Assembly: GCA_001724265.1 (NCBI GenBank)
Contig: MEDY01000064.1
Coordinates: 124,001-181,757, forward strand
Direction of reading: 5' to 3'
Length of the DNA stretch: 57,757 nt
Origin: Rhizaria sp. SCN 62-66
Taxonomy: Eukaryota
Positions within the stretch are counted from its first letter, which is position 1. The number at the start of each line of letters is the position of its first letter. Positions 2,364-51,089 of the stretch are shown one piece after another. Made by a program: the position numbers and the translations under genes. The notes under the pieces were generated by a model, which did not search any database, was not told the DNA's origin, and saw only the letters and a list, made by a program, of their open reading frames with translations.

Positions 2364-2410
<47 letters not shown>

Positions 2411-13600: not shown

Positions 13601-15334
13601 CTCCTCCTCGGTCATGGTCTGCTTCTGGCCGTGACCCAGGCCGCTGCGGGGCCCATCGACGTCGTCGTCGTCGTCATCGTCGTCGAGCTTGGCTTTCTTG
13701 TCTGCGGGGCGCGCCGCAGTGGCAGCGCCGGCGGCGACCTTCTGGCCGCCCGCGGCGTCGCCGGCGCCCGCGCCAGCCGCCTTAGCACCGGCCGCGCCGG
13801 CCCCGGCAGCCCCCTTGCCGCTGGCGCTAGTAGGGATCATGTCCCCGTCGTCGTCCGCGCTCGCGCCGCCGCTACCCGCGCGACCGCCCTTGGCAGCCGC
13901 GGCCGCGGAGGCAACGGGGGTCTTCTTGACGGCGAGCCCGGCCGACGCGAGCAGCGCGCTGTTCTCCGTCTGCTCGCCGTCGTCTTCGTCGCCGCTGACG
14001 TAGCCGCTGCGCTTGCGGCTGACACCCGCGTTGCTCTTGCTGGTCGCGGCCTCGATCGCGGCCGAGTCGACCGACACCGCGAGCGGGGCGCTGGCGCCCG
14101 CGCTGGCGCTCTTGGCCGAGCGCTCGATGCTCGCCAGCGACGACAGCGCCGTCGCCACGCGCGCGCCCGACGACTGCGCCTGCGCCTGCATCTGCATCAG
14201 CCGCTCGCGCGGACTCAGCTCCACGGCCGCGGCGGCGGCGGCCGCGGCGGCAGCGGCGGCGGACGCCGCGTTCGCGGCCGCGGCGGTCGCGGCGGCCTTT
14301 GACGCGGCGGCCGCGTTGGCGACGGCCGCGGCGGCGGCAGACTGATGGATCGACGTGTTGAGCGCCGCAAAGGGATTAGTGCCTGCAGTCAGAGGGTTAC
14401 TCGCGTTCGCGAACGGGTTGGTGGCGCCCGGGGCGAAAGGATTACTCCCCACCGCAAAGGGGTTGGGCGCGACGCCGACACCGACGCCGGCGCCGGCGGC
14501 AAAGGGGTTCGTGGCGCCCATCGCGAAGGGGTTGCTCGCCGAGGGCGCGAAGGGGTTGCCGGCCGCGGGCGCGAACGGGTTGGCTGCAGCGCTGAGGCCC
14601 GCAGCGAAGGGGTTCGGGGACACGCCGGGGGCGCCGGCGGCGCCGGCTGCGAAGGGGTTGGGGGCCGCAGCGAAGGGGTTCACGCCTGGGCGCGCGCCGG
14701 CGGCGGCTGCGGCAGCGGCGGCGGTCGCGGCAGCGGCGGTCGCGGCAGCGAAGGGATTACGTGCGGCTGCCGCGGCGAAGGGGTTCGGCGGCGGCTGTCG
14801 CGCGCCGGTGGCTGCTGCGCCAACAGGGGCACCAGCGGCGGCGGTGGCAAAGGGGTTGTTGCGCGCGCCGAGGCTCGCGAAGGGGTTCACGGGCGGCGGC
14901 GGCGGCGGCGGGGCGCCTGTGCCAGTAGCGCCGGCAGCGGTGGGCGCAGCGGGGGGACGCGAGGCGAAGGGGTTCGGGACCGCGGCGGCCGCAAAGGGGT
15001 TTGGAGGCACAGCGCCTGCTGGGCGAGCCGCAGCGGCCGCGAAGGGGTTCGGCGCGGGCGCGGCAGGTGCGCCCGCGCGACTGGCAGCGGCGGCCGCGGC
15101 GGCGGCGAAGGGGTTCGGGGGCGGCGGGGGCGCACGGGGGCCTGAGGAAGCAAAGCGCGCGCAGCCGCGGGTCAGCACGGGGGCTGCGTGGCGCGCGGCA
15201 GAGCCGATCGCGGTGCTGGTTGCGGAAGCAGCAGACTTTGTGAGTGTAGCAGCGAAGGAAGTCGTTGCGGCGGCGGCGGGGGCGACAAGGCGCACGCGAC
15301 GCCGGGCAGCGCCGACAGTGCCCAGTCCCTGCAT
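10643..15334 (-). CDS. MTIF2: Organellar (probably mitochondrial) translation initiation factor IF-2, ~1521 aa; exons 15334-12218 and 12091-10643
   Basis: G1 GHVDHGKTSLLD, EAGRITQSIG, DTPGHAVFKNMRARGA, NKCD, LKADVHGSLDAL, SLKHFKDEV..GKECGV. The Arg/Ala-rich N-terminus resembles a transit peptide. Splicing joins VVRQ|GSLRVGD. Stop is TAA. Confidence 0.93.
12092..12217 (-). other. Spliceosomal intron (126 nt) in IF2
   Basis: GTACGT...CTAAC...TTTTAG, AT-rich, phase 0, restores the conserved IF2 sequence. Confidence 0.92.
14370..15120 (-). repeat. Array of ~19 NPF(A) peptide repeats in the IF2 N-terminal extension
   Basis: Recurrent GAAGGGGTT on the + strand, equal to AAC CCC TTC (NPF) on the - strand. 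Confidence 0.9.
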
Positions 15335-16035
15335 GGTACCGGCGCGGCGCAAGATTATGGCTTCAGGTAAAAGTGTAGGGTAGGTGGGGGAGCTAGAGAG
15401 CTGTAGGGCTGAGCGAGGCGGTGTGGCGCGGTGCGAAGACCAGAGCAAGAGAGCGAGAGTGGTGAGGCGAGCAGCTCAGTGAGATAAATCCGGGCACAAG
15501 TAGGTATATAGAGCAAAATATCAGAATAAAAGCTATATTCGTGCGCGCATAAAATCATACCGCGACAATATGCTATAATGACGCTTGCAAGACGATAAGA
15601 ATTGATTTTCCGAACTTTTACGCACGGCTGCGGTCGCTTGCCTAAATTCGTTGCAGCTTCTCGTTTCTTCGCCACATCTAGGAAGTTGGCAATATCTGCA
15701 TAAGCTCGCGCTATGTCGGTACTTTCAAGTGTTTCTTCAGGCGTCTGCTATAGAAATAGAACTTTCAGTATCATTGATTTGGTTATTATCCACCAGGCTT
15801 CCTGTAAGGTGTCGAACTGGCTTCACTTGCGGAGTTGGACTGGTGCCAACCACGTGCGGCCAGTTCGAGCATTTCCCCTAGCATGAAGTCTCTAATGTCC
15901 TCAAAATGACATATAATTTCACGTCATTTATGTTACTGTTATTTCCTATTAGAATCACGTGCTTACATCTCCTTTGACGGTCTCCTCACGCTACGCATTC
16001 ACGATTTTCGTTAATCCCTGTTAGTCCGATCGCCA

Positions 16036-18593
16036 ATGAGCAGTGCCGGCAAGAAGCGCAAGGTCGCCGCCAAGGCCTCTAAGGCGGCCACCAAGAAGCC
16101 CACCCAGACGGATTCCCCTGTCTCTTCCGACGACGAAGCCGACCGTCGCACCCGCGACGAGCACGCCGCTGCGCGCGAGTGGCTGTCCACGCTGGCCCCC
16201 ACCGACGTGCTGTCGAAGGACCTGTTCGACGCCGACCGCATCGCAGCGCTGCGCTCTGAGTTCGCCAACAAGCTCCCGTTCCCGCACTGCACGATCGAGA
16301 ACTTTGTCGACTCGCAGTTTCTTGCCGCGATGCTGGATGAGCTCAAGAACCTCGACTACGCCTCGAAGAACAACGACCTGTACAACTTCTCCCAGTCCGA
16401 GGAGGACCTTAAGTGCGTGACCTTCCCGCTCGTGACCCACTTCCGCGAGCTGCTCTACTCCCCGGCGACCGTGGCGGCGCTGTCGCAGATCTCGGGCATC
16501 CCGCTCTACGGCCTTGACAGTCCGTCGCAGCCGGACTTCTTCGCCGCCGTGTACTCAGACAAGTCCCGCCTCCTGTGCCACGACGACGAGCTCGAGGGCC
16601 GTCGCATCGCCTTCATCGTGTACCTCGCCGAGGAGGGCTGGGCCGACGCCGACGGCGGGCAGCTCGACCTGTTTAACACCGACGCCGCGACGGGTCAGCC
16701 CGCGGACATCGCCGTGTCGTACGTGCCCAAGTGGGGCTCGTTCACATTCTTCGAGGTCTCACCCAAGAGCTACCACCAGGTACGTCGCAAGTCAAATATT
16801 TCTATTTTTATAACGCACTTATCAAACTACATCGTATGATGTTTATATTTCTGCTTCAACGCTATTTTTGCTGATGTAGCTTCCAACTGTCGTACCTTGT
16901 TTCTTGCTTTGCTATCTTGATCGCATGTAGGTGCGTGAGGTTCTGTCCAAGAACAAGCTGCGCGTCTCTATGGGCGGCTGGTTCCACGGTCCCCCCATCA
17001 CTCGCAAGGCGCCCGTTATCGAGCCCGTGGCCGCCGCGTTCCCGCCGGTCCCCGCGCCCGTCGGCGCGGCGGCCGGCGGCGTGCTGCCCGGCTGGGTTAA
17101 CAAGCAGTACACGGCCGCCAAGATCGTGCCCCAGATCAAGGCCGCGTTCAGCGAGGACTCGTCGCTGGAGCTCCACAACTTCATCTCCGACGCTCTTTAC
17201 AAGGAGATTCTCGGTGAGATTGTTGCTCTGGAGAAGACCGCGTTCCCCAATGTCGCCGCCAATGGCACTGCTGCCGACGCCAAGACTCCTGTGCCTGCTG
17301 CTGAGGCTGAGGCTGAAGCTAACAACGACGACGACGACGGGAACGACGACGAAAGCGACGAAGAGGACGAGGAGGACGAGGGTGAGACCCCCGAGTCCGC
17401 CAAAACTGCAACGACCGCCGCCAAGAAGGGCGCCAAGGGCAAGGCCAAGGGCAAGGCCGGGACCAAATCCAAGGGGGCCAAGGCCGGCAAGGCGGGCAAG
17501 GGCGTCAAGGCCAAGGCTGCCGCCGCCAAGAAGGCCTCTGCGACCGCTGGTGCCGGCGCCAGCGAGCCGCTAGAGCCCGCGGTGCTGCCTGCGCTGATGA
17601 CCTACCCGGTCCCCGGTCTGGGCCTGTCGCTCGCCGGACCCGCCAACTTCCGCTGCTTCTATGAGCAAGTGTCGCCCGGCCAGGCGTTCGCGTTCCCGCA
17701 GACGCACCCGGAGGCGGCCGGCGCAGGGCCGCAGCAGGGCGCCGTGTTCAGCGGCCCGTCGGTGACGCCGAAGCTCGACGCGCTCGTCGAGGAGCTTAAG
17801 GGGGAGAAGTTCGCGAAGGTACGTTTTCAATCCGATTTATATTTGAAAAGGTTTTGCAATGCTGCAAATGGTGTGTGGCAATTTCGTGTGTATTGTACAA
17901 CTGTGTGTACATTCCTCATATTTTTTTGGCTTTTTTATGTCTGCACGTTTTAGTTCATCGAGACCGTGACCGGGATGACGGTGAGCTCCGTGACGCCCCC
18001 CTCGCGCCGGCTCTTTCGCCGCGGTTGCTACACCCTGGCCCACGACCACGAGCTTGAGACGCTGGAGGAAGCACTCGACGTCACCGTCACCTTTATGGTG
18101 CCCAAGGCGGCGCTCAAGTGGGATGAGTCCGACGGCGGCTCCATTCACTACCTCCAGGCCGGCGCTGACGAGGAGCTGCTCACCGTCATGCCCGTGCCCA
18201 ACGCTGTCACAATGGTCTACCGGTACGTAAACGACGGCATCGCGAATATTGCTGAATTAGCACGTTCACAACTGACGATGAACCAAGAAAAAGTTAAATG
18301 TTTTTATTCTAATTGTGACTACATTGTCTCACATATCGGTTCTGTGTTTTGTCTTTATTTGTGTGTTTTCTTTCGTCTCTGCGTTGTCCGATGGTGTTGT
18401 CTCGATGCTGTTTAGTGCCGGTGCGAGTACAAACGATGACGGCACTCGCGAAGGCGGCGTGATGCAGTTCACCCGCTATCTTTCGCACACCGCGCCTGGG
18501 TTTGTGTTCCAGGTCAAGATGACCTACCGCGGCCTTGAGGGTGACGACGATGATGACGCTGAGGCAGGAGCGGAGGATGGTGCTGATGAGTGA
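16036..18593 (+). CDS. OGFOD1: Prolyl 3-hydroxylase OGFOD1/Tpa1/Ofd1, ~692 aa; exons 16036-16779, 16931-17818, 17954-18222, 18416-18593
   Basis: PFPH, KNNDLYNFSQS, LLCHDDELEGRRIAFIVYL (HxD), FFEVSPKSYHQVREV, RVSMGGWFH, RLFRRGCYTL. Three GTACGT...TAG introns keep frame. Stop is TGA. Confidence 0.92.
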
Positions 18594-25759: not shown

Positions 25760-28629
25760 TCACCGCGGTGAGTCAGCAAACACACTGCTCCCCGTCGTCG
25801 AGTCATCGTCGCCAATACCCCGGCCCCCGTGTCCGTGCGCCCCACGGCCGTAGCCGCCGCCAAGAGCGACGCCACTGCCGCCGTTGCTGGAGCCCCTGTT
25901 GCCGCTGCTGTTCGACTTGGCGGCGTCAGCCTCCGCGGCGACGGCGGCCCTCTGCAGCGCCGCGGGCCGCCCCGCCGCCCGCGCGCGCGCGCTGAGGCCG
26001 ACGCCCAGCTGGTCGGCCAGCGCCCGCGCGCGGCGCTCCTCGGCCTCGTCGGCGGCCTCGGCAGCCGTCTGCGCCAATGCGCGCCCGCGGGCGTCGGCCT
26101 CGGCCAGCGCGGCCACACTGTGGTCGAACGCCGAGTGAAAGCCGCCGGCAAGACCGTGGGCTGCGCCGTCGTGATGTTCGTCGCCGTGCGCGTCATCAAA
26201 GTCGTAGTTGTGGAGCACGAGCTCGCCTTCGTAGTGCGGGTCGTATCTAAGCGTCTACATCAAACCGGTAGAATCACTAGCGGCGCTGCACGTTGCCGCA
26301 GCAGTCGTACTGTTGTTCATCTACGGGAACGCAAACACGTTGTTCGAATTGCCCCGGCCCGCCTACAGCGCGCGGCCGTGCGCGCCCGCGCCGCCGCTGC
26401 CGAGGTCGTCGATCTCAGCGTCAGCGTTGGGCGGCGGCGGCAGCGGGTCAAAGCGCGGCGAGCCCAGCGGCGGCGCGGGGCGCGGGGTCGAGGCCGGGGT
26501 ACGCACGCCGCCCGCGCTGAGGTTGCCCGAGCCGGCCGTCGCGACGGCGCTGCCCACCATCGCCGTCGCCGCGGGCGTGTCGTGCGCGGGTGCGGGCAGC
26601 GCGGGGAGGTCGCCCGAGTGCGAGAGCGACAGAGAGTGCGTGTACGCCAGCGTGGGGGACATGGCGCCGGCGCTGTTAGGGCCAGACAGGGGCGGCGACA
26701 GCGGGAGAGAGCCGGAGCCAGACGCAGACGCAGAGGCAGACGCGGATGCCGAGGCCGCGGCGGGCACTGACGACGACACCGACAACGCCAGGGCAGTCGC
26801 GGCCGCGTTGCCGCTTCCGCCGGCGGTCTTAGGGGCGGCGCCCGAGAGCGACTGCTGGGCTGCATAGGCGCTCGCGCCCGCGGTGCTGACGCCATGGGGC
26901 GCCGCGTTTGCAGAGATAGTGCTGTTGTGGGACTGCGAGTGCGAGAGAGCGTTGGCGCCAGACACAAACGACACGCCGCCGCCGCCGGGGTTGCCTCGAC
27001 CGGCGGTGACTTTGCCGTCGCCACCGAGATCGTCGTGGCCGGCCGCACCGGTCTCGGCATCGGCCGCGGGCGGCAGCGCGAGGGCGCGCGTATAAGCGTA
27101 CGCGATGCGGGTGCGGCGCATTACCACGGCCACGATCGTCTGTCAGCGAACAAGAACAAACAGCAAAGAAAAAAAATATGGAAATTCGTAAAAAGTGTCA
27201 GAACGATTGTGATAAAACAAGAAACGAGAACATCTTTCAAAAACTACTCCTTCATCGTAGGATCATGCGTTGAGCAGCGCGCAGTGCGTACCTCGGCGAA
27301 GACTGTGCTGATGACGACTACGGCGAGCAGGCGCACGTGCTGCACCGCCGCGTCCAGCACCTCGGGCGCGGGGTGGTCCGGCGCGAAGTGCTTCGTCACG
27401 TTGTCGATGATCGCCGTCTCGGAGAGGTTCAGCGCGAACGCGGCCGTGAGCGCGCCCGCGATGGCGAGCATGGCGTTGGCGGCGGAGAAGGCTCTGAGCA
27501 CCTCGCTGTGGTTGAGGCAGAGTCCGGTGTAGCCCGTGGCGGCGGAGAGGATCGTCGCAACCGTGAGCGCGAGCGTGGCGACGTGCACGCGCGGGGACGC
27601 GAAGGCCGTTTCGGGCAGCGACGCTGTGGCGAAGACCAGCGCGAGCGCGCAGAAGAGCGTGACAGTGACGAGGACGAGCAGGATCAGCACGCGGCGCCGC
27701 GCCGTCGCGAAGGGCGGCGCGTGCGGTATCGAGTAGTCGTCCTGAATTAACAGAATTTAACACAAATAGAATGTAATATGTAAGCCTTGCGTAGAAAGTG
27801 TAGTTTAAGTTCTTGATACTGGATGAAAAACAGCTCGTTTAGAAAGCAACATATTGTTTTGTCGTTAAAATGAAATGAAACGTACGTCGCTGGCGTCATA
27901 TCCGGCGGCGTTGCGCCGCGACCCGCTTGCGTTGGTGCCGCTCGCGCTCGCGCCATTGCCGCCGCCGTTGCCGCCACTGTGCTGCGCGTCGTACTGGTGC
28001 ATGAGGCGCTGCACGGCGCGCTTGCGGTGCGCGCGTTGCTCCCTGCGCTCGGCCTCGACCTGTTGCCGCGACTGCTGCAGCTCGACCGCGCTCTTGGCCA
28101 GGTTCGCGTCCTGCGTGTACCGCTGCAGCGCCTCCTGCAGCGCGTGTGTGCGCTTCGTGAGCGCGCGCGTCTCGGCGGCACGCGCTCGGTCTAGCGCCGC
28201 CTGCTGCTGCAGCCGCTGCTGCAGCCGGTGGTAGGCCGGGGAAGCCGGGTTCAGCCCCGCCGCGTCGCCGTCGGTGGCCCTCGCCACTGCGCCAGAGGCC
28301 GCGGAGCCGGCGGAGGGACTGACGCTGGCGTTGCTCGTGCTGTGCGAGGCGTCGTCGCCGGCCGCCGCGGCAGAGGCCGTGGCGGCGGCGGCAGCGGCGG
28401 CGGCGGCGGCAAGCGCGGCGGGGTAGGCAGTGGCTTCGTCCGAGTCGGAGGAGTAGGCCCAAACCGAGGTCGGCGTCGGCAGCTTGGCCGCGGCGGCGAT
28501 CAGCGCGGCCTCGGACTTGCTATGCGCCATCAGATGCTGCGCCCGACCGCTTCGCGAGCTTCCAGCGCCGGAGCCTGGGCCTGGGGGCGCGCCACCGCCG
28601 GCAAAGTGGGCCCGGGAAGGGCGCGGCAT
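25760..28629 (-). CDS. Four-TM (tetraspanin-like topology) hypothetical protein, ~857 aa; exons 28629-27886, 27741-27292, 27139-25760; three internal in-frame TAGs
   Basis: Phase-0 introns GTACGT..TCAG and GTACGC..ACAG. Coiled-coil N-terminus and four hydrophobic helices. ORFs 26363..27133 and 25760..26218 share a frame, bridged by TAGs at 26365-63, 26323-21 and 26257-55. Stop is TGA. Confidence 0.68.
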
Positions 28630-37795: not shown

Positions 37796-38497
37796 ATGCC
37801 GAAGCGCAACCGGATTGTTCACCTGACGAAGACGTCCAAGAAGGGTCATGCGCACAAGGAGCGCCTGATCGAGGACGTGCGCACGGCGTGCGACACGTAC
37901 GCCCACGCCTTCGTCTTCACTGTGCCCAACGCGCGCAACCAGACCTTCTCGGAGCTGCGCGGCGAGTGGGCTGACTCGCGCTTCTTCCTTGGCAAGAACA
38001 AGGTCATGGCCGTTGCTCTGGGCCAGACGCTCGAGTCCGAGCACTGCCCCGGCGCGTTCAAGCTGGCCTCGATGCTCAAGGGCCAGTGCGGGCTGCTCTT
38101 CACCAACCGGTCCGCCGAGGACGTGCTGGAGTTCTTCAGCAACGTTGAGGAGCCCAACTTCGCGCGCTCCGGCTTTGTCGCCACGCATGACTTCGCGCTC
38201 AACAAGGGCATCCTGGAGGACCAGCCGTTCTCGATCGAGCCCACCCTGCGCAAGCTCGGCCTCATGACCCGCCTCAACAACGGCCAGGTCGAGCTTGAGT
38301 GCGACACGCAGGTCTGCCGCAAGGGCGACAAGCTGACGCCCAACCAATGCGTCATTCTCGAGCGTTTCAACGTCATGATGGCCGTCATGCGCGTGCTTAT
38401 CCACGGCCACTTCGACATTAAGGCCGGCAAGATCCAGAAGTTCGAGCACGAGGAGGTCGAGGTCGACGACGACGACGAGGAGGAGGACCAGGAGTAA
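37796..38497 (+). CDS. MRT4: Ribosome assembly factor Mrt4 (mRNA turnover protein 4)
   Basis: MPKRNRIVHLTKT, SRFFLGKNKVMAVALG, GQCGLLFTN, FARSG, SIEPTLRKLG, acidic tail. Intronless, stop is TAA. Confidence 0.96.
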   Translation: MPKRNRIVHLTKTSKKGHAHKERLIEDVRTACDTYAHAFVFTVPNARNQTFSELRGEWADSRFFLGKNKVMAVALGQTLESEHCPGAFKLASMLKGQCGLLFTNRSAEDVLEFFSNVEEPNFARSGFVATHDFALNKGILEDQPFSIEPTLRKLGLMTRLNNGQVELECDTQVCRKGDKLTPNQCVILERFNVMMAVMRVLIHGHFDIKAGKIQKFEHEEVEVDDDDEEEDQE

Positions 38498-39165
38498 GCA
38501 AATGACAGATTAGAGAGTTTCAACTACTACTCTTAGTCCATGTGTGTGAACTCTGCGCGCTCTTGTTCTCTCTCAACAAGCGTTGTGCCTCTTCTGATTT
38601 ATTTTGGCTCCTGGTGATCGTCTTAAGGGACCGCTCGAAGCACTTGTTGCTATCAATCAATATGCGGTTTATATGTGCGTCACAAATGGGAGCATCAACA
38701 TGTTACGATAGTCGTTTTATTTTTGGTGTGTTTGTTTCCCTTTTTTGTTTTCTATGTGCGCTTTTTACAATGCTTTACACAACATGCAATCACTCAAAAT
38801 CGTTATTAGTATAAATACAGATCTTTTCTTGCTGTAAACTTCTACGTAGTCCTTCCAGAGTTTATGTTAATATCACAGTGGTGCATCTACAAAGCGAATT
38901 GCGATTTTATATTACTGCTGTTGTGTATTGGCACTGTGATCAGTGTCAGGATCGTTCTGTTTATGTTGGGAATGAAGGTAGTGACTTCACATGGTAAAAA
39001 GCAAACAGAGACAAAACAAATGAACAAAACAAATGTCGCTAGTTATTATTTCTTTTAGCAAGGTAACTGTCGCGCGGCACAAGACATCTTAGAAAAGCGC
39101 GCTCTACGTCTTAGATTGCGATAGTTATAGACGTCTAAGGGCCTCGCGGTACTGAGTCTGTCTGC

Positions 39166-42100
39166 TCAGTACCGCTCCTGGTGTGCCAGCCTCAGCCCCT
39201 GTCGGTGCTTCGTCAGCCAAGCATTGCCCCCGCTGCCCGCACCCGCGCCCGCGCCAGCGCCGTCGTGCTGGTGCTGCGACTGGGCGGATGCGCCGGTGAG
39301 CGAGCTACCGAGCGAGCGCTCGAGCATAGCCGAGTGAAGCTCGCTGCCGAGGTCGTGGAACGCCGAGGCCATAAGCTTCTGCTCGCGGCGCGCGGCAAGC
39401 GCGGCCTCCTTGCGCAGCCGCTCCGAGTCGGAGAGCGCGACCTCGAGGTCAACGATGCGCTGCTGCGCGAGCAGGAGGTCGGCGGCGGCCGCGGCGGCAG
39501 CGGCGGCGGCGGAGGAAGACGAGGAAGTGAGCGAGCGACGCTCCTCCTATATAAACGAAAGATAATGGAGGCGAAACACATGAAGTTCAGAGAATGATAA
39601 GAAAATGAATGATGTGGTGCGAAAAATTACATATTGATAACAATTAGAAAGCACAACAACGGAACAAGGAGGCGGCGTAGTTTCGGTGTGTGCGACAATT
39701 TGTGAGAAGGTTGAGAGATCCAACAGTGCTGCTTGTTTGCTTTAAAAATACGTTGTTTCGGCGTTGCTGTTCCTTGTGAAAGCGTATGAGTGTTGCGTGT
39801 GTTGCTAATATGATTATGGCTTGCCTGTGTGTCCGTTTGTGTGTGTGTCGTGAAGCCTTGTCCAACCGACGATATTGTGCGAGCTGCTTGCTAGATTGGA
39901 GAAACAATGGGAAATCAAACACAACAGATGTTGCAGCGTATGCACGTGTGAGCGATTCTGTAATAGTGAGGTAATGTGTACGTAGTACCACGACAAAAAC
40001 AACAGTGAAGTAGTAGTAGTCGTAATAAAATACAATCAGAGCTCTACAGTAACCGCAAAACAGTCACGCACACATTGTGCCCACAACTTATCACACGAAT
40101 GCACAGCAGCACACTATCGCAGCGCGAAATGACGTAAACACACGAATGAACCCAGAAACACACCGACGCAAGTGTCGGCACTCGAGAGCGCAAACACATA
40201 ATCGACGGCGAGAGCACCAGCTCAAACAGCACACACACGCACACAGATAGAAACAAACATTGAAGCATAGAAACGAAACACATCGTTGAATAAAAGAGTA
40301 GTTGGAACGCACCTATATTGTGAGGAAAGCAGTCGCTAAACCACCAACACACGAACACGTACACGCACAGGAACATGCAAAACCAAATTATGTTTAAATT
40401 AACACACAGACGCGACAACAACAGTCGCACAACTTAAAGCAAACAAGCAAAGCACGTTAAACACTGAAAGTGACAAAGACCATGTGACGAGTGCTAGCGA
40501 GGAACAGAACAATGCGTGTTTTCATCGCCAGTATACCGCAAATTCGACAAGAGATTATTGACATTGTGAAGCTTTGAGTGATAGGCAAGTGTGAGCAAAG
40601 ACTGGACAACACTGTGGTGATCGAGAGCAGGGACTAGGCTGCAGATAACTGAAGAAATGAAGTAGCTAGAAAAATAACGTTTAAAACTGCAATAAATAGG
40701 TAAGGATTAATAGAAACGGACAAAGGAATAGACCTGCGCAAGTCCACGCTCTCATCATCATCAACATTAGCTAGCACTATTACCACATGACCCTACACTC
40801 AAGTCGCACGAACTCCACAACAATAAGCATGCCTAAGCGGTACAAAAGGTCGCATCAAACACATAAATAAGGAATCTCCTGCTTAACTAACACCCTCACA
40901 ATCGGTTTCGGTCGCACTTCAGTTTCTCCTCCTCCCTCACAAAATGAACCACACACACTGAGACAACTTCAAGATGAACGAGAACGTGGACGAGAACGAA
41001 ACACTCAGCGCGTGCTGCTGCGCTCCATGGTAACCGTGGTCACCACTGAGCTCACAGTCCCGCCCATGACAAGCGCGAGTGCGAGCAGCAGCACGACCTT
41101 CCATGTCTTGACCTGCCGCTGCAGCAGCAGCGCGTCGCCGCACGCGCTCGCGAACGCGCGCCCGCCGTAGACGACCCGGGCCACGGCCGCGGTGATCGCA
41201 GCCAGCCCGCTCGCGTCGGCGCGGGCCTCGGTCGCGGCGGCGCCGGCGGCCGCAGCGGCGGCGGCGTCCTGGGCGTCGTCGCCGGCGCCGGTAGCCTTGC
41301 TGTTCTTGCCCTTATTCTTGTTCTTCTTGCTATCCTTGGCGTCCATCGCGGCCAGCTTAGACTGTGCCAGCGCGACAGCGGCCGCCGTCTCCTCCTTGCG
41401 TCGCGCGCGCGCAGCCTCCTCCTCGGCCTGGGCAGCCGCAGCAGCTGCCGCAGCCGCTGCAGCAGCCGCGGCAGCCGAAGTGGCAGCCGCGCTCGCACTT
41501 GCCGTTGTTCCAGTCGGTGATGTAACAGCTAAACGGTGCAACTGACTGGGCGCAATCGCGTCCAAACCTACCTCCTTGACGCGCTTGTTGGCGTCGAGCA
41601 CGTAGCGCTCCATCTTGCTGCGCAGCGTCTGCTCCTGCGCAAGCTTCTCCTGCGCCAGCCTCAGCTGCTCTCTATTCGTGCGCAGCTCGCTCTCGGCCGC
41701 CGACAGCCGCGTCGCCGTGGCCTGGTGCGTCTTCTCCTGCGCCGCCACCTTGGCCTGCACGCTCGCCATCTGCGCCTCGTAGGCCTTCTTGACCTCGGAC
41801 ACGCGCTTGTCGTCGCCCGCAGACTCGCGGTGGCGCATCAGCTCGCGCTCCGCCTCGGCCTTGGCCTTGAGGATCGCGGCCTGGTCCTCCTGCGCATCCT
41901 TGATCGCGACGGCAGCACGCGCACGCTCCTTGGCCAGCGCCTGCTTCGCCGCAGCGACCTCGGACTCGAGATCGGTGATGCGCGCAGCGGCCGCGGCTTC
42001 GGCGGCGGCCTTGGCGGACGCGGCAGCGGCGTCGGCAGCCGCGGCGGACGCGGCGGCGGCGGCAGCGGCGGACGCAGCCTGGTCGCCTGCAGCAGCAGCG

Positions 42101-45100
42101 GTCGCCGCGGTGGCTGCGGCAGCCTTCTCCTCGGCGGCCTTGACCGCGCTCTTCGCAGCGGCCTTGGCGGCAGCTTCCTCGGCCTTGGCAGTCTCCGCGG
42201 AGGCCGCGGCGGCCTCGGCCGTCTTGCTGGCCTTGGCGGCGGCGGCCACGGCGGCGTCGGCGCGAGCACGCTCAGACTCAACATCCCGCTTCGCGGCGGC
42301 GGCCTCGGCGCGCGCGGCCTCGGCGGCGGTGGCGTCGGCCGCGGCACGGTCGCGCGCAGAAGCAAGGTCAAGCTCAGCGTCGGCCTTGGCGGCCGTGGCG
42401 GCGGCGGCCTCAGCGCGTGCAGCGTCGGCCGCAGCCTCGGCGGCGGCGGCAGCGGCCGTCAGGCGCGCGCAGTCGTCCTGCTTCGACTTGAGCTCGTCCT
42501 TGAGCGCGGCGGCGGCGGCACTGGCGGCGGCGATGGCGGCTGACTCGGAGGCCTCGCCCGCCGCGGCCGCGCTGGCCGCCGCAGTCTCCTGCTCCTGCAA
42601 CAGCGCGTGGTAGCGCGTCTCCAGCTCCGCAAACCGGGCCCCCGCTGCGGCCTCTGCGGCAGCCTTGGCGTCGGCAGCGGCCTTGGCGGCCTCCAAGTCC
42701 TTGTCCTTGGCGGCAAGGCGCGCAGCCGTCTTCTTGGCCTCGGCCACGGCGTCGTCGCGCGCGTCGCGGGCAGCCTTGGCCTCGGCCTCAGCGGCGGCAG
42801 TTGCCTCCGCGGCGGCCTTAGCGGCGGCAGCGGCGGAAGTCTTGATCGCGGCAAGCTCAGCCTCGCCCGCAGCAACGGCCTCGGCGACAGCGGCCTCCTT
42901 CGCGGCAACCGCAGCGGCCACAGCGGCAGCCGCAGCGGCCGCGGCGGCCTCGGCTTCGCGGCAGCGCTCGTCAGCCTCCGCGGCGGCGGCTTTGGCGGCG
43001 CTCACGGCGGCCGCGAGCTCGACGTTGAGCGTGCTGAGGCTCTTGGCGCGCTCCTCGGCCGCGCTCGCCGTCGCCGTCGCGGCCGCGGCGTCGGCCGAGG
43101 CGCGGACCGCGCGCGCCTCGGCGTCGGCGCAGGCGCGGAGCTGCTCGGTGAGGCGGCCGCGCAGTGCCTCTTCAGCGGCGGCGGCGTCGTCGGCGGCGGT
43201 CGTGGCGGCGGCGCGCGCGGCGGCCAGGTCGGCGCGCAGCGTGACGACCTCGTCCTGCAGCGCGGCGGAGGGCGTCGCGCCCGCGCTCGACTGCGTGGCC
43301 CCCGCGGCCGCGGCAGCGGGGGCGGCGGAGGACGAGGGGAGCGTGACGGTGAGCGAGCCCAGCTGCTCCTCGTTGCCGTCCGCGGCGGTGCCGGCGGAGG
43401 ACGAGAAGAGCGCGGCGCGGTTCAGCCCCACACCGACGCCGCCGCCGAGTCCGCGGCTGGCGGCGCCCGCGAGCGGCGAGGTCAGCGGCGAGAAGAGCCC
43501 CGATTGCGACGTCAGCGCCTGCGCGCGCGTGAGGTCGTCCTGCGCGCGCACGAGCTGCTCGTTGAGCGAGGCCTGCTCCGCCCGCGACGACGCGAGCTCG
43601 GAGCGCAGCGCAGTGACCTGGTTGCCGCTGCTCTCGGCCGCAATCTCCACCTCAGTGAGCTTCATCTGCAGCTCGCGCACCTGCGCCACGGCCTTGGCGC
43701 TGCGCTTCTCGCTGGCCAGGAGCTCGCGCACGTGCGCCTCGGACAGCGCGAGCCGCTCCTTCAGCGAAGCCGCGTCGGCGCGCAGCACGTCCGTCTCGGC
43801 CGACGTGTCCGTTTGCTGCGTCGCCGTCGACGCCAGCTGCTTCTTGTACTGCGCGACCGTCAGCTCCAGCTGCGCCACCTGCCGCGCGCGCTCCAGCGCC
43901 GCGTCGAGCTTGTCGTTAAGCGACGACAGCTCCTCGGCGTGGCGGCGCTGCTCCTCCTCGCGCCGCTCCTGCAGCCGCGTCAGCGCCTCCTGCGTCCGCA
44001 GCAGCTGCGCACGAAGCCCGTGCAGCTCGCGCTCGGCCGCCGCGCTGACCTCGTGCGTCTCGGAGCGGAGGCGGTCCGTCTCGTCCTCGCGCGCCACGCG
44101 CGCCTTCTCAAGCGCGGCCACCACGGCGGCCTCGTGCGCGTCGCGCAGCTGCTCCACCTCGGTCTGGTGCGTGTACACCAGTTTGTCGATCTGGCGCCGC
44201 AGCGCCGCCATCTCGGTGCCCGCAGCGTCGACCTGGGCCGCCAAGTCGTCGCGCTCGTTGGTGAGGCGGTCGAGCTGCAGCTGCACCACGGGCGACACAC
44301 CGGGGGGTGCGCCCGCGGCCGAGTGCGCGGCGGCGGCCGCGGCAGCGGCAGCGAGCGTGGCAGCCGTGAGCCCGCTGGGAGACCGGTGGTGCGACATGCG
44401 GCGTGAGGCGGCGATCGCCGACGACGGGTTCGACACCGAGAGCTGCTGCTGCAGCCCGGGCGGCGCGAGGCTGCCGCCGGGGGTGGTCGCGGCGCCGGCC
44501 GCGCCGAGTGTGTTAGTGCGCGAGCGCGTGCTGGAGCGCGCCGGCGTGGTGAGGTCGGCGCGGTCCAGGTTGCGCTCGAGACGCTTGACGATGGACGAAC
44601 CGCGCGCGCCGCCGGAGAGCGTGCTGCTGCTGTCGTCGCCGGTCAGAGACGCCGCGTCGCTGTTGCTGTGGTTCGCGTCAGCGTCGGCGTTGCTGTCGGC
44701 GTCGGCGAGCTGGTCCGCGAACGAGTGCGACACGGAGCCTGAGCGGCTGCGGGCAATGGTCTTGATGTTGTCCTCCACGCCGCTGAGGTCGCTATCGTCG
44801 TCATCGTCGTCGTCGTCGTCGTTATCGTCGTCGTTGTTGGGCATGAAGTCAGTGACCATCATCATCAGCGTGTGCTGCGCGTCGTCGTTGAGGTCCATGA
44901 TGCGCGGGATCACGCTGTCGCGCTGCGGTGAGTTGAGCGCAATGGCCAGCACTAGCTGACACACCTTCAACACGTTCTCGTTCGACGCAGGAGCGTCGGC
45001 AGCGGTGAATGCGTCAACAGAAAGACCGAGCTCGGAGTCTACGGTCGAGTTGAAGGTCTTGAGGAAGAAAGCGTTGATCTCAGGCAGGATCCGCGGCCAG

Positions 45101-45510
45101 GTGTCCGTAGAACTCGCCGAGGACGCATTGGCCGGCGGGGAGGCGAAGTCCTCGGGGGACAAGTAGTGCAGGACGGCCATGATAACCCCGCCAGAAGCGA
45201 GGGTGGAGAGCGATGCAGCGGGGGACTCGTTGATGTCCTGTGCGAAGGTGTTGATGAAGCTCAACACGGCCGCGGCCTGGAACTCGGTCTGTTGCGACTG
45301 TTGCGGGAATCGGGCAGAACAAAGGCGATGGATAAAGCACAACAAGGAGGGTGGTTTAAAGAACGTGAGGCAGAATAATAGGGATGATAAATATTCGGTA
45401 GTCGGGTAGAGATAGAGATTTAGCGAAACATCAATGAGTTGGGGTCTGCGGAGCCCGGATAGTGAAGACAACGGTCCGGAAGATAAGCGGCAACGTACCT
45501 CGATGTCCAT
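39166..45510 (-). CDS. HOOK: Hook-family dynein adaptor, soluble isoform (~1369 aa); exons 45510-45499, ~45288-41572, 39546-39166
   Basis: N-terminal Hook (CH-like) domain (LASGGVIMAVLHYLSPEDF; KVCQLVLAIALNSPQRDSVIPRIMDLNDDAQHTLM) and a long coiled coil. The terminal exon encodes the Hook C-terminal motif REQKLMASAFHDLG...WLTKHRQ. Phase-0 join GAG|GTAGGT...TATAG|GAG. Stop is TGA. Confidence 0.8.
41005..45510 (-). CDS. HOOK: Hook-family protein, alternative tail-anchored isoform (~1431 aa, donor at 41571 not used)
   Basis: The frame stays open for ~188 GC-rich codons past the donor and ends WKVVLLLALALVMGGTVSSVVTTVTMERSSTR-TGA. Confidence 0.62.
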   Translation of the reverse strand: MDIEVRCRLSSGPLSSLSGLRRPQLIDVSLNLYLYPTTEYLSSLLFCLTFFKPPSLLCFIHRLCSARFPQQSQQTEFQAAAVLSFINTFAQDINESPAASLSTLASGGVIMAVLHYLSPEDFASPPANASSASSTDTWPRILPEINAFFLKTFNSTVDSELGLSVDAFTAADAPASNENVLKVCQLVLAIALNSPQRDSVIPRIMDLNDDAQHTLMMMVTDFMPNNDDDNDDDDDDDDDSDLSGVEDNIKTIARSRSGSVSHSFADQLADADSNADADANHSNSDAASLTGDDSSSTLSGGARGSSIVKRLERNLDRADLTTPARSSTRSRTNTLGAAGAATTPGGSLAPPGLQQQLSVSNPSSAIAASRRMSHHRSPSGLTAATLAAAAAAAAAHSAAGAPPGVSPVVQLQLDRLTNERDDLAAQVDAAGTEMAALRRQIDKLVYTHQTEVEQLRDAHEAAVVAALEKARVAREDETDRLRSETHEVSAAAERELHGLRAQLLRTQEALTRLQERREEEQRRHAEELSSLNDKLDAALERARQVAQLELTVAQYKKQLASTATQQTDTSAETDVLRADAASLKERLALSEAHVRELLASEKRSAKAVAQVRELQMKLTEVEIAAESSGNQVTALRSELASSRAEQASLNEQLVRAQDDLTRAQALTSQSGLFSPLTSPLAGAASRGLGGGVGVGLNRAALFSSSAGTAADGNEEQLGSLTVTLPSSSAAPAAAAAGATQSSAGATPSAALQDEVVTLRADLAAARAAATTAADDAAAAEEALRGRLTEQLRACADAEARAVRASADAAAATATASAAEERAKSLSTLNVELAAAVSAAKAAAAEADERCREAEAAAAAAAAAVAAAVAAKEAAVAEAVAAGEAELAAIKTSAAAAAKAAAEATAAAEAEAKAARDARDDAVAEAKKTAARLAAKDKDLEAAKAAADAKAAAEAAAGARFAELETRYHALLQEQETAAASAAAAGEASESAAIAAASAAAAALKDELKSKQDDCARLTAAAAAAEAAADAARAEAAAATAAKADAELDLASARDRAAADATAAEAARAEAAAAKRDVESERARADAAVAAAAKASKTAEAAAASAETAKAEEAAAKAAAKSAVKAAEEKAAAATAATAAAAGDQAASAAAAAAASAAAADAAAASAKAAAEAAAAARITDLESEVAAAKQALAKERARAAVAIKDAQEDQAAILKAKAEAERELMRHRESAGDDKRVSEVKKAYEAQMASVQAKVAAQEKTHQATATRLSAAESELRTNREQLRLAQEKLAQEQTLRSKMERYVLDANKRVKEVGLDAIAPSQLHRLAVTSPTGTTASASAAATSAAAAAAAAAAAAAAAQAEEEAARARRKEETAAAVALAQSKLAAMDAKDSKKNKNKGKNSKATGAGDDAQDAAAAAAAGAAATEARADASGLAAITAAVARVVYGGRAFASACGDALLLQRQVKTWKVVLLLALALVMGGTVSSVVTTVTMERSSTR

Positions 45511-46298
45511 CGTGCGCGGGGAGGGCTCACCGGAAGGTGATGTAGGGTCTTAGGTAGCGAAAAGCGCGCGCAGAGCACAAGACAGTTGTCACAGACAGGA
45601 GTCAGTCACGAAATAACAAGCCGGGGCGACGGCGGGTGTGCGACGGGCTCGCAGAAACGGTGTCGGTTGGGAGCTGACGCGGCACAAGCTTACAGCACAA
45701 ACCTGTAGAACTAGGGCGAACCTGTACGTCAATAAAATCAAAAACAGTAGTATCAAAAAATATATGAGGTGGAGTATCTATTCAAATCATAATCATTATG
45801 TTTGCCGAAGCACAGCACGTATGGTGGTTTATTGAAAACAGCGAAGATTTTGTCGCTCCCGTCTCTCCTTGCCTCGCGTCGCCGACCGTGGGTTTTTGCG
45901 AACCTCGCCTTGCCGACTGGTGATTGCCGCAAGATGAGGACTCGTCTGGTCGTCCGCGGTCGAGGCGAATCTCGTGACGTCAGTCGACTTCGGCGAAGTG
46001 TGTGCGCCGTGGGGACTCCGTTGACGCTTATTTGACTTGTGAATCTGGCGGTAGTCCGCTGTTAATTATCTAATCTTTTCTTAGTTTGCTTGCCAGCTCC
46101 TTTTTTAGCGCGGTATATCTTCTGTGTAATCCCAACGGTCCTCTCACCTCTCCTCATCCCCCACCACTGCCTTCTCTTGCTGATGGACGTAGGCCCGTTC
46201 CCGCTTGCTGAAACGGTCACTGTTGCAGTGAGCTACTTTTCTTTGGTTGCTTTAAGTCCAGTCTCCCGCATCCTAGCTGCGAGTCTCGGCCTCCGTCT

Positions 46299-49200
46299 AT
46301 GACGAAGAAGTCGTCGAACCCAGGCAACCAGCGGGGCCCCGCCGCGGGCCCCGCTGTCCCGGCCTCCGCCGCCGCCCCTGCCACCGCCTCGATTTCTACT
46401 TCTTCCTCCAAGCCCTCCGCCTCTTCTGCTGCACCCGCAAAGGCGGTTAAGCCTGTCTCTGCTCGTGCTCGCCTGTCCTCGTCCCGCTTCAAGGTCAGTC
46501 ACGTGCCCTCCCACATCAGCTCATGATATCCCACCTGCCCTCTCACTCTCGTGCTCCGTATCAACCATCTCGCCCTTCTCTCACTGACATATCACCCTGC
46601 ATTGCTCTTTTTCTGTTTTTCCCGCTCCAGCTGTCGTCTGTGATCGCCGTACTCGTGGTGCTGCTCGCCGCGGCGGCCATGTCCCCCACCCCCGTCGGTG
46701 TTTCACTCCGCTCCCTTGCCGTCACCCTCCGCGCCAAGCTCACCGGGGCCGCCGCCGTGGCCGCCGCCCGCGTCACGGGCGCCGCCAATGGCAACGGCAA
46801 CAACGCCAGCAATAACAACAACAACGTCAACCGCCCTACGCCGCAGCAGCAGCACCACCACCACCACCACCACGACGTGCATGCGCGCCACAGCCACATC
46901 CCGATGCTGCACGAGGCGACCGTGGGCTCGGACGTCATTAAGGCCGTCACCGCGGCGGCGGGCCCGCTGCCGCTGTCGACGCACACGCCGTACAAGTGGG
47001 GCACGTATCGCCCCAGCGTGTATGTCGGCCTCCGCGCGCGCCACCCCGCGTCGCCTCTCTTCGGGCTCATGTGGTTCGACCCCTACCAGGCGGCGCCGCT
47101 GGACCTGCTGCGCCACGAGGCGCGCTCCGAGGAGCACCCCGCGCGGCTCGAGTGGGCCATCCACGATGGGCGCCACTACGGCATGCAGACGGTGCTCGAC
47201 GGCGCCTACAACGTCACCACCGAGTTCATCCAGGACCCCGCGCGCGAGGACTCGTTCGCACTGTCGCTGCGCGTGCAGGCGCACGAGCCGCCCGCGGGCT
47301 CCGAAGCGGCGCGCGTGTACCACTCGCACCACACGGCCGAGCCGCGCCAGGCGCTCAAGCGCACGCCCGTGCACCAGGGCAAGGAGCCGGCCATCTCGCT
47401 ATTGTGGTACTGGGTGTTGCCCGACGACGCCGACGACGTGCTCATGCCCGCCTTCCCGCCCGCCGTCACCACGGCGCTCGCCACCAGCAACAGCAACAGC
47501 GGCGCGCGCAAGGAGAACCCTGGGTATCCGCTGTCTGCGCCGCTGACGACGCGGCTTATCTTAAACTCGACCAAGCGCGCGTTTGACTTCACGTCCAAGC
47601 GCGTCAAGGGCGCCCCGGCGCCCACGCTCGACACGGCCGCGTTGCCCGCCGCCGTGGAGGCGTACCTCGCGCAGGTCAACGCCAGCTTCGACCCCAACAA
47701 CAGCAAGAACAAGAAGGGTAGCAAGGATGGCAAGGACGCCAACAGCGGCTACAAGGACTCCAACACGGGCAGCGCGAGCGTGAGCAGCGGCAAGGCCGTG
47801 CGCGAGCGCAACCCGCTTTACCAGCCGCCGCCGCAGCAGCACCACGCGCATTACTTTCATCACCGCCCGCTGCCGCCGCCGGAGCGCCGCTGGCGGTACC
47901 AGCATCCGGCCTTCACGGCGCCGCACCGGCCGGCGGACGAGGTGCGCTTCACCGCGTACCGCACGAGCAAGGACCCGTGGCGCGTGCACGACGTCGCCGT
48001 GTCGGTGCTGACCCAGAACGCGATGACTGCGCAGCACCCGGCGTACGGCGAGCAGCAGAAGCTGCTCAACGGCGTCGCCAAGGCCGAGGACGCTTGGGAC
48101 AGCAGCAGCAATAGTGATAGCAGCATCGCGGCCGCCAAGGCCATCGGCGACGGCAAGAGCCCGCTGACGCCGCAGCAGCTGCAGGAGCGCGCGCGCGCCG
48201 AGGCCGCGAACAAGCACGGCAACCTGCAGGTCCCGCGCGGGCTCACGCACGAGCTCGGCATCTCGATGCCGCAGCTCGACAACACGTTGCGCGCGACGGC
48301 GCCGCCGCCGAACAACCACCACTTCATGTTCCACGGCGGTCAGCCCCCGCCGGTGGAGGCGCACAAGTACGCCAGCAGCGTCAACGGCCCCGTGTCGGGA
48401 ACTGGGATGTCGCGCGTGGTGGTGTTTCAGGCCACGCTCAAGCTGCCCGTCGAGATGGAGTACACACTCTTCCCCGCCACCGGCGAGCTGGTGCCCAAGT
48501 CTGCTGTTGCTTCGACTGCGAACAAGGATGGCAAGAATGCTGCTGTTGCGAACGGCAAGTCCGCCGTGGAGGCCGTCACTGTCGAGGGCGACGCCAAGTC
48601 CGCCGCCGCCTACGCGCCCGCCGTCACTGCGGCCCGTCGCGACGGCGCCGCGGCCTTTGCGGTCCCCGCCTCAACTGCGCACGGCGAGTATATGAGCAAG
48701 AAGGTGCCCGAGCTGCGGGCCGACGCACGCAAGCGCTTTCACGATCGGTTTGAGAAGGAGTTCGGGCTCTCGAGCAAGAACTTCACTGCTGACCAGGTAC
48801 ATAACTAAAACAAATAATACCTGAATTCATGTTCATCACTCCGCCTCTGTTGTAATCAAATATTATCGCACTATCGATCACTCATATTTATTCTTATTTA
48901 TTTGTTTTATTTTCCTTCTATCTGCCCAGGTTGCTTTCGGCAAGATGGCGATGTCGTCGCTGCTGGGCGGCATGGGCTACTGGCACGGCCGCGGCCGTCT
49001 GATGCAGCGCGTCGGCTACGGCGACGCCACGACGGCGCTCGACAGCGACTTCAAGCAGTTCTACGCGGACTCGGCGGCCAAGAAGTTCATCTCGCCGCAC
49101 CGCCTGACGACGCTCGAGAACGGGCGCAACAACGAGATCAAGGCCGTGCAGGTGCGCAACTACCGCACGCTGCAGAACCCCGAGCAGGAGCTCTTCTCTT

Positions 49201-51089
49201 GCTCGCCCTCGCGCGTGTGCTTCCCGCGCGGCTTCCTGTGGGACGAGGGCTTCCACCAGCTGCTCGTGTCGCGCTGGGACCCAGCGCTGAGCCAGCAGGT
49301 CTTCGCGACCTGGGCCGCGATGATCGACTCGGAGGGCTGGCTGCCGCGCGAGCAAATCCTCGGCGACGAGGCACGCACGCGCGTGCCCGAGGAGTTCCAG
49401 ACGCAGCGCAGTGACATCGCGAACCCGCCGACGCAGGTGCTTGCGCTCAAGACGATGCTGGCGCACATGCTCGAGCGCGAGGGCGCGCGCCTGGGCTGCG
49501 AGCTCAAGCTCGCGGGCTCGCTGCACCACGCCGTCGACAAGTGCGGCGGCGCCGACAACATCAAGTGGTCGTCTGAGTTCACGCAGTTCGTGGCGTTCCT
49601 GCGGGACGTGTTGCCGTCGTACCGCCGCCAGGCGATGTGGTACCTGCAGAGCCAGGCTGCGCCCGCGCACGCCGACCCGCAGGCCACAGGCGTGAGCTAC
49701 GAGGAGCTGGTCAAGGCCACGACCGCGACGCAGCCCGGCCAGGTGAGCGAGGCTGCGGTCGAAGCGCTCCTGGCCGACGCGAAGGCCAAGGCGGCCGCCC
49801 GCGCCGAGGACGCCGCCGCGAGCAGAATCGTGCCGGACGATCTGCCGTGGACTCTGACGCGCGACCTCTCGTGGCTCAACGCGAGCGTGTACATGTGGCA
49901 CTCGCGCACGCGCGCGCACGCGCTGTCATCGGGGCTGGACGACTACCCGCGGCTGCCGATCGGGCCTAGTCCGTTCGTGCTGTCCGAGGGCCACGTCGAC
50001 TTGCAGGCGTGGCTCATCATGTCGGCCAACACGCTCGCCGACCTCTCCGAGACGTTGTTGGACCTTGCGACGATCATCGGCGACGAGAACATCAACAACA
50101 TCATCACCAGCAACAACACGAACAAGAACAAGAACGCGAACTACCGCGACGACACCAACAAAAACAACGCCGACAGCACTGAGGAAGTGCCCGCCCCCGA
50201 GCGCATCACGGTCAACAACCGCGCGTTCCCCGTCACGGGCCCCGCGCGCTCCCTGCGTTTCCCGCCCGGCACCACGCCCGCGGCGCGCGACTTTTACACC
50301 GCGCTGGCGATGCACGAGCACGCGGCCGAGAGCGAGCTGACGCAGCAGACGCTGAACCAGCTCCCGCCGCTGCTGCCCGTCCCGCCGCCGCGGCGCCCGT
50401 TCAACCGTGCTGCGCTGGAGAAGGACATCATATTTTTCCGCTCCAAGGCCGAGTCGCTGCTGCAGACGATGAACCGGCTGATGTACGACCCCGTGGCGAA
50501 GAAGTACGCCGACTTCGCCGTCATCGCAGGCAACTACGACGCCGAGGCGCAGAACGTGTACGACCGGTTCGTGCGCAAGTTCGGCGTCAAGGACGGCGCC
50601 AAGGACGTCAAGCCGGGGCACGTGTTCATTCACCACGACGGCTACGTGTCACTGATGCCGCTGTTCTTGGGGCTTGTGCCCGTCGAGTCCAACTCGACCA
50701 AGACGCCCTCGAAGCTGCTGAGCATGCTCGACGTGCTGTCGTCGCCGCAGGTCATGACCAACTTCGGCATCCGCTCGCTCTCGCGCGCGGACCCGCTGTT
50801 CGGGGCCGGGGAAAACTACTGGCGCGGCAACGTTTGGGTGCCCGTCAACGTGCTTGCGCTGCAAGGCCTCACGGGCTACGTTGAGGCCACGAGCGGGGAG
50901 ATGCGGGAGAAGATCGTCAAGCTGCGGGAGAAGCTCAAGGATGGAATCATTAGCAACTTGTATCAGGAGTATAAGAAGAAGGGTTATTTGTTTGAGAACT
51001 ATGAGGCTAACTCGGGGCACGGTGCGCGTTGTGCGCCGTTCACCGGGTGGAGTGCGCTCGTGGTGCTGCTGATGGACGGATCCGTCTAA
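46299..51089 (+). CDS. MOGS: Mannosyl-oligosaccharide glucosidase I (GH63), ~1506 aa; exons 46299-46493, 46631-48796, 48930-51089
   Basis: Type II TM anchor, WGTYRPSVYVG, FGLMW, HDGRHYG, SLLGGMGYWHG, PSRVCFPRGFLWDEGFH, GWLPREQILG, LSSGLDDYPR, NYWRGNVW, FENY...PFTGWSALV. Two phase-0 introns. Stop is TAA. Confidence 0.95.

Follow-up and report, generated by a model that had tools for sequence, protein, structure and literature searches.

We analyzed a 57,757-nucleotide (nt) stretch of DNA from the protist Rhizaria sp. SCN 62-66 (contig MEDY01000064.1, positions 124,001 to 181,757 of the forward strand), hereafter the window. Its minus strand harbors a gene, at 39166-45510, that is predicted to encode a dynein-dynactin adaptor of the Hook family and that probably has two alternative C-terminal ends, one soluble and one anchored in a membrane. 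Coding sequence in the window is GC-rich and non-coding sequence AT-rich, and the sequencing runs that contain window DNA come from wastewater and activated sludge. The parts of the gene, in window coordinates, are as follows.

39166-45510, minus strand: whole Hook gene, read from the sequence as a single eukaryotic gene
45499..45510, minus strand: exon 1, 4 codons (ATG plus three, M-D-I-E), followed by a GTACGT donor
45298..45498, minus strand: intron 1, 201 nt, GTACGT...AACAG, GC 0.48; the HOOK_N match begins just 3' of it
41572..45297, minus strand: main exon, an open frame with the HOOK domain, an acidic low-complexity run and a long Ala-rich, coiled-coil-like region
44854..45267, minus strand: N-terminal HOOK domain, from the PF19047 match and HOOK3 structures
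41566..41571, minus strand: phase-0 donor AAG GAG/GTAGGT, from the sequence
41008..41571, minus strand: candidate read-through tail, 188 codons in the open frame of the main exon, stop at 41007-41005
41032..41097, minus strand: predicted transmembrane helix, 22 residues, from hydropathy; 8 residues and then the stop
39547..41004, minus strand: AT-rich remainder of the candidate 2025-nt intron, GC 0.43, T-rich in sense, ending in a T-rich tract and a TAG acceptor
39169..39546, minus strand: candidate distal last exon, 126 codons, predicted Hook C-terminal conserved region, stop at 39168-39166

The ATG of exon 1 (45510) is the first ATG past an in-frame stop at 45552-45550, and an alternative acceptor of intron 1, 9 nt further on, is also possible. 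The main exon is a single exon of 3726 nt (1242 codons). Its GC content by codon position is 0.74/0.56/0.89, against about 0.43 at all three positions in stretches taken as non-coding, and its in-frame codon score is +0.47 to +0.72. Codon-usage scores were computed with a table trained on two other genes of the window, which encode an eIF5B-type GTPase and a glucosidase (see below).

The assignment to the Hook family comes from the N-terminus. The start of the main exon matches the Pfam profile HOOK_N (PF19047) over positions 6-144 of 146 with an E value of 1.7e-6 and 28.3 bits (cut-off 23.5). Compared with the Protein Data Bank (PDB), the same region matches human HOOK3 (6b9h_A, E 5e-6, residues 9-151; 5j8e_A, E 5.4e-6) and Hook1 (1wix_A, E 0.0026). 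In characterised Hooks, the HOOK domain binds the light intermediate chain of dynein. Its final helix, which in HOOK3 carries the residues that bind this chain, is well kept in the alignment to the HOOK3 structures. Judged by these sequence matches, the minus-strand gene is a Hook-family gene. Further downstream, none of three pieces of the main exon (140, 240 and 265 amino acids, aa) matched PF05622, the Pfam profile for the Hook coiled coil, at E values up to 10; these pieces gave weak matches to assorted coiled-coil families only, and the sequence is Ala-rich and heptad-like by eye. A word-based search with the HOOK_N region among proteins of 273-2000 aa returned nothing, and the length limits of the word-based searches excluded any short fragment of the main exon from a relative, for instance one on the 3761-nt contig described below.

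Two candidate ends of the Hook gene

An earlier reading of this DNA, made from the letters alone (hereafter the sequence-only reading), had proposed that a GTAGGT donor at 41571 and a 2025-nt intron lead to a distal exon at 39546; the two splice sites and the open frames on either side are present in the sequence at the positions given. The acceptor (...TTTATATAG / GAG GAG at 39547/39546) follows a T-rich tract ending in TATAG/, and both it and the donor at 41571 are in phase 0, with 2025 nt between the two. Because a TAG codon abuts the acceptor on its 5' side, the distal frame cannot extend upstream. The distal exon has a GC content at third codon positions (GC3) of 0.865, and its codon score is +0.357 in frame and negative in the five other frames. 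It matches PF05622 over profile positions 430-498 of 514 (E 0.0037) with 16.5 bits, below the 35-bit cut-off of the family.

An exhaustive HMMER search of 1.84 billion representatives returned three matches, namely the open reading frame of the window itself and two relatives, P0002 (56% identity, 103 aa; encoded on a 3761-nt contig) and P0003 (43%, 114 aa; on a 21877-nt contig). Each of the relatives matches about the same stretch of PF05622, 430-498 of 514, with E values of 0.011 and 2.7e-4, respectively. A profile built from the three sequences matched the C-terminal chain of HOOK3 (8qat_A, E 0.035) in the PDB, and the same chain is the top PDB match of P0003 (E 0.17), in an alignment that covers the conserved ...KL-x-x-SA-[FW]-[HY]-x-[LM]-G block. 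The window exon by itself gave no Hook among 34 weak PDB matches, and a word-based search with it among proteins of 69-221 aa returned nothing. Conservation among the three sequences begins at residue 23, upstream of the sole Met of the exon (residue 59); together with the stop codon that abuts the acceptor, this means that the distal exon must join an upstream exon, and the only Hook-like gene body upstream is that of the main exon. The sequence matches, which agree in position although their scores are low, support the distal exon as a probable conserved Hook C-terminal piece that would be expressible only via splicing to an upstream exon. We consider it very likely that this partner is the main exon, and no other donor is nearly as good a candidate for the junction as the one at 41571.

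A metagenome scan with the exon alignment found two loci, equivalent to window positions 38329-42268 and 39261-41059 (L001 and L002), in two public metagenome records. They match the window at 100% identity across 3940 and 1799 nt, with the AT-rich non-coding part included, and as pieces of the same organism they carry no comparative information. Their identity across records indicates that the same strain, or a very uniform species, recurs in several samples. A scan of prokaryote genome contigs gave 20 pattern matches, none of them confirmed.

If the donor at 41571 is not used, the frame of the main exon stays open for 188 codons (41571..41008) up to a TGA stop at 41007-41005. The open frame as such is weak evidence, because other frames are also open in DNA of 70% GC. 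Codon usage is more specific: 41427..41008 scores +0.574 in the Hook frame and does not exceed 0.03 in any of the five others, and the exons of the Hook gene score +0.36 to +0.72 on the same table. GC3 is 0.84-0.96 in 150-nt intervals starting at 41421-41196 (spanning 41421..41047) and 0.48 in the first 150 nt past the donor. The maximum-likelihood single changepoint in GC content between 41571 and 40400 falls at 41008/41007, exactly where the stop codon begins; GC is 0.70 before this point and 0.434 after it. These results support the conclusion that 41427..41008 is coding-like in the Hook frame up to its stop.

As the sequence-only reading had described, this tail of 188 codons ends in a hydrophobic helix. 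The segment (22 residues, 41097..41032) reaches a Kyte-Doolittle 19-mer mean of 2.45 at residues 1400-1418 of 1429, and the runner-up segments of the read-through protein, which are poly-Ala, reach 1.6 at most. Among the stop-to-stop open reading frames of the window of at least 100 aa, 4 of 247 have a segment reaching 2.2 within their last 35 residues, as do 2 of the 176 with GC-rich ends, counts that may or may not include the Hook frame itself. Shuffling the residues of the tail gave an equally hydrophobic end in 3 of 5000 cases. With one predicted transmembrane segment no more than about 30 residues from the C-terminus and neither a signal peptide nor another strongly hydrophobic segment, the predicted topology of the read-through product is that of a tail-anchored protein. 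The linker of the tail is rich in Lys and Asn, the helix is moderately hydrophobic with basic residues flanking it on both sides, and the 8-residue end has a net charge of about +1. Under the sorting rules for tail anchors, such charge and hydrophobicity fit the endoplasmic reticulum (ER) and nuclear envelope or the mitochondrial outer membrane. The sole Pfam match of the tail, PIG-L (E 0.053), was rejected.

The 1458 AT-rich nt between the two ends (39547..41004) have negative codon scores in all six frames. An Rfam scan of 38500-41700 gave three matches, all on a GCN repeat and far below the gathering score, and a tRNA scan gave none. The AT-rich stretch has no copy elsewhere in the window and thus shows no sign of a repeated mobile element.

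RNA-library contigs and competing gene structures

The gene family, the frames and phases of both ends, their coding-like composition and the tail-anchor topology are shown by the sequence itself. On this basis we give a probability of about 0.6 to the interpretation that one Hook-family adaptor gene has a composite last exon and, through it, two alternative C-termini. The splice signals are compatible with such an arrangement. Of seven candidate introns of the window (12092-12217, 16780-16930, 17819-17953, 18223-18415, 27742-27885, 45298-45498 and 48797-48929), three lie in nameable genes (eIF5B, the glucosidase and intron 1 of Hook) and four were picked by their composition and GT..AG ends. 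The sequence-only reading had given 126-290 nt for the introns elsewhere in this DNA; they are indeed short, and the seven candidates measure 126-201 nt. Their GC content is 0.31-0.48, all have a T-rich 3' end, and the donor is GTACGT in six and GTACAT in one, a uniformity that could help to place the organism. The donor at 41571, GTAGGT, differs from the local GTACGT in its fourth base, and its intron is ten times the usual length. An off-consensus donor and a long intron would fit a site that is not always used. Short introns past this donor (43 or 74 nt, both frame-shifting) were considered and rejected as too short and as leading into negative-scoring frames.

RNA evidence came from assembled contigs of public runs only. 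In run X2, a poly(A) metatranscriptome, error-free contigs cross the donor unspliced (41502-41765) and cross the stop codon of the tail (40807-41051), which is weak evidence for the tail; a third contig covers 40549-40793. The motif AATAAT lies a few bases before the contig end at 40549, contig ends being arbitrary. Run X2 is without cover over 39420-40271 and resumes at 40549, and such gaps are not evidence, because the exon stretch 44816-45383 is also without X2 cover. Run X4 has cover in every bin, with 39536-41178 as one piece, and behaves like DNA. A depth of 22 at 39136-39419 is probably due to low-complexity cross-hits. The contigs neither prove nor refute either form. Contigs from all four runs share a 3-base omission at 42311, in the Ala-rich repeat region of the main exon, which may be an in-frame length variant or a repeat cross-hit.

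Several results weigh against the two-ended gene. The junction 41572^39546, which the sequence-only reading had named as the check on its splicing claim, is absent among the 15 joints listed of 124, and no poly(A) site was seen in the contigs. A further X2 contig (45466-45749) crosses the donor of intron 1 unspliced, so that the X2 contigs may derive from DNA or pre-mRNA. The first 144 nt past the donor at 41571 have rare codons, score -0.257 in frame and are coding-like in no frame. Relatives had been sought for both termini, and those found, P0002 and P0003, belong to the distal exon: for the tail region, a word-based search of proteins 785-2501 aa long yielded no match, and the ESM Atlas gave no usable one. 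For the distal exon, the canonical Hook C-terminal motif claimed earlier agrees with the place of the PF05622 match and with the relatives, and yet the matches of all three sequences score below the 35-bit cut-off. In the PDB search with the three-sequence profile, five chains of ASC/PYCARD scored above HOOK3 (E 0.0024-0.0027); we judged these matches spurious, as a product of linker composition, because the alignment passes through a Gly/Ala/Pro-rich linker. Finally, a PDB search with the C-terminal 76 aa encoded by the main exon found no Hook, so homology does not place the junction.

Some of these points would also favor another account, which we consider unlikely, in which the spliced soluble Hook is the sole functional product and the GC-rich tail is either a relic left by a former 3' end or a degraded, rarely translated retained-intron product. 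The negative-scoring 144 nt, the failure of the word-based search and the Atlas to find a tail relative, the restriction of the observed conservation to the distal exon, and the fact that unspliced RNA-library contigs can be DNA or pre-mRNA all agree with it. A relic, however, should have moved toward the GC content of local non-coding sequence, 0.31-0.48, whereas 41427..41008 has a GC3 of 0.84-0.96. The codon usage of the tail equals that of real exons, the break in composition lies exactly at the tail stop, and a terminal transmembrane helix is rare by chance, all of which argue against this account.

The membrane tail could also be reached by splicing rather than by read-through. In that case the donor at 41571 would pair with an in-frame acceptor at 41429/41428; the intron would measure 144 nt, the two last exons would be mutually exclusive and the tail would have 140 aa. 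Such an intron has a length within the local 126-201 nt, removes exactly the stretch that looks non-coding and keeps the frame. Yet its GC content is 0.65 and its 3' end is GC-rich without a T-rich tract, unlike all seven reference introns, and an RNA-library contig is unspliced from the exon to 41502. For these reasons we prefer read-through and regard the 144-nt intron as improbable.

Two further arrangements appear very improbable. In one, a different donor is spliced to the distal exon, for instance the phase-0 CAG/GTCAAG at 41112, just before the helix, so that most of the tail would be constitutive and the helix alone alternative; this site is in phase with the acceptor, but GTCAAG departs from GTACGT, the donor of six of the seven local introns, at all four of its last positions, and no such joint is among those listed. 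In the other, the tail is a separate small tail-anchored gene starting at an in-frame Met codon (41346, 113 codons before the stop), or the distal exon belongs to another gene; against this, the coding-like composition begins upstream of that ATG and in the Hook frame, the space that a promoter would need is lacking, and the distal exon is Hook-like and has no usable start, with no other Hook N-terminus in between.

Other features of the window

The genes that supplied the codon table and further features of the window are listed here.

10646-15475, minus strand: translation GTPase of the eIF5B type, interrupted by a 126-nt intron (GTP_EFTU, E 1.4e-28; IF-2 domain, E 5.2e-21)
46451-51086, plus strand: mannosyl-oligosaccharide glucosidase of family 63, interrupted by a 133-nt intron (GH63 N-terminal domain, E 1.1e-22; GH63 C-terminal domain, E 2.3e-108)
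45724-45841, plus strand: GTACGT...AACAG candidate intron, 118 nt, GC 0.32
3-10241, plus strand: very long open frames of 1359 and 2052 aa
30308-34150, minus strand: very long open frame of 1281 aa
53075-57757, minus strand: very long open frame of 1561 aa
51103-53058: longest AT-rich stretch of the window, 1956 nt, GC about 0.40-0.43

The eIF5B-type protein is extended at its N-terminus by about 830 aa, in which no Pfam family was matched. The glucosidase and Hook genes are divergent, with about 0.9 kb between their starts, and the 118-nt candidate intron in their shared upstream region may be a 5'-untranslated-region (UTR) intron of the glucosidase gene. The very long open frames matched no Pfam family at E values up to 0.001, and runs of Asn, Gln and Asp are abundant in them.

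Proposed mechanism and relation to known systems

From the anatomy of the locus we infer that both mRNAs are produced, that splicing competes with intronic polyadenylation, and that the products differ in function, one of them being directed to a target membrane. In the soluble form, the donor at 41571 would be joined to the acceptor at 39547 to give a Hook protein of about 1372 aa that ends in the conserved C-terminal region. Dynein-dynactin would be activated by the N-terminal domain and coiled coil of this protein, and cargo would be bound indirectly by its C-terminal region, as is the case for HookA of Aspergillus. In the membrane form, the donor would remain unused, cleavage and polyadenylation would occur inside the intron, and translation would continue for 188 codons. 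The first 144 nt past the donor would then be translated as a weakly constrained linker and would also serve as the start of the long intron, and the AT-rich remainder (39547..41004) would contain the 3' UTR of the tail-anchored form together with its poly(A) site. The protein made from this mRNA, about 1434 aa long and with a single transmembrane helix 8 residues before its C-terminus, would be inserted post-translationally, and its Hook domain and coiled coil would lie on the cytosolic side. Its cargo-binding region would thus be swapped for a Lys/Asn-rich linker and an anchor, and a dynein activator would be fixed on an organelle membrane without a cargo-binding complex.

To our knowledge, ZYG-12 of Caenorhabditis elegans is the sole known precedent for a membrane form in the Hook family. 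A literature search, which covered titles and the openings of abstracts, found no other Hook with a transmembrane or tail-anchored form, and one may exist in print. ZYG-12 has three isoforms, two with a transmembrane KASH domain at the nuclear envelope via SUN-1 and one without it at the centrosome (PMC2717649, in part), in agreement with the alternative membrane and soluble isoforms that the sequence-only reading had invoked. The protist gene resembles it in having a Hook N-terminal domain and a coiled-coil-like region and, as a single gene, predicted forms with and without a C-terminal transmembrane segment, these isoforms being deduced here from sequence. It differs in that the protist tail has no KASH domain and the non-membrane form would keep the canonical Hook C-terminal region. 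A KASH domain is defined by a C-terminal transmembrane helix followed by a luminal peptide of some tens of residues with a PPPX-like end that binds SUN. The tail has a predicted C-terminal transmembrane helix and lacks the luminal PPPX-type peptide: because only 8 residues, without a proline, follow the helix, the tail is not a KASH domain, as the sequence-only reading had already observed for the PPPx end. The tail may nevertheless work like one. Of the comparison with ZYG-12 as a membrane-tethered adaptor, the Hook gene, the two coding-like ends and the tail-anchor helix hold, whereas a link between nucleus and centrosome is only one of several possible targets, and a ZYG-12-like nuclear role is doubtful.

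The C-terminal region of characterised Hooks attaches cargo, through FTS and FHIP on endosomes in fungi. In Aspergillus HookA, the C-terminus is necessary and sufficient for binding to early endosomes (PMC3998793, in part). Canonical Hooks (human HOOK1-3, Aspergillus HookA and Ustilago Hok1) share with the protist gene the N-terminal Hook domain and probably, by matches that score weakly, the conserved C-terminal region. At about 1372 aa, the predicted protist protein has roughly twice the length of HookA (638 aa) because of Ala-rich expansions, its central region is not matched by PF05622, and the gene has the extra, predicted membrane-anchored ending. Outside the Hook family, KASH5 is a membrane-inserted dynein adaptor (PMC10071310, in part), and Dictyostelium Kif9, a kinesin with a C-terminal membrane anchor, is a comparable case for the coupling of nucleus and centrosome (PMC11816917, in part). 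Both resemble the predicted membrane form in that a motor or motor activator is tied to a membrane by a C-terminal helix; they belong to unrelated protein families, and neither has a Hook domain. The closest parallel for the gene structure is the switch between the secreted and membrane forms of immunoglobulin mu, in which a composite terminal exon sets splicing against intronic polyadenylation. There too, one donor chooses between read-through and a downstream exon and thereby switches between a membrane-bound and a soluble product. In the protist Hook, however, the membrane form would arise by read-through and the soluble one by splicing, as deduced from the anatomy of the gene.

Dynein reaches many cargoes via few activating adaptors, and Hooks normally need the FTS-FHIP complex to hold cargo. 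Against this background, we tentatively propose that this free-living protist has a toggle, independent of that of nematodes, between an FTS/FHIP-dependent soluble Hook and a non-KASH, membrane-inserted dynein activator, set by a weak donor in competition with an intronic poly(A) site. The tether would be to the nuclear envelope or ER, linking nucleus and centrosome without SUN-KASH, or to another organelle such as mitochondria. This full version of the mechanism is speculative and rather unlikely to hold in all its parts; a convergent origin is plausible. As the organism is uncultured, the case is a lead rather than an experiment-ready system. If the interpretation is true, a Hook that is an integral membrane protein would be a second, independent way to fix dynein on an organelle, and one adaptor would attach to cargo in a regulated or a constitutive way depending on a simple choice between splicing and polyadenylation. 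Should the anchored form, which lacks a KASH peptide, also prove to reside at the nuclear envelope, the case would be relevant to the evolution of nucleus-centrosome coupling outside animals.

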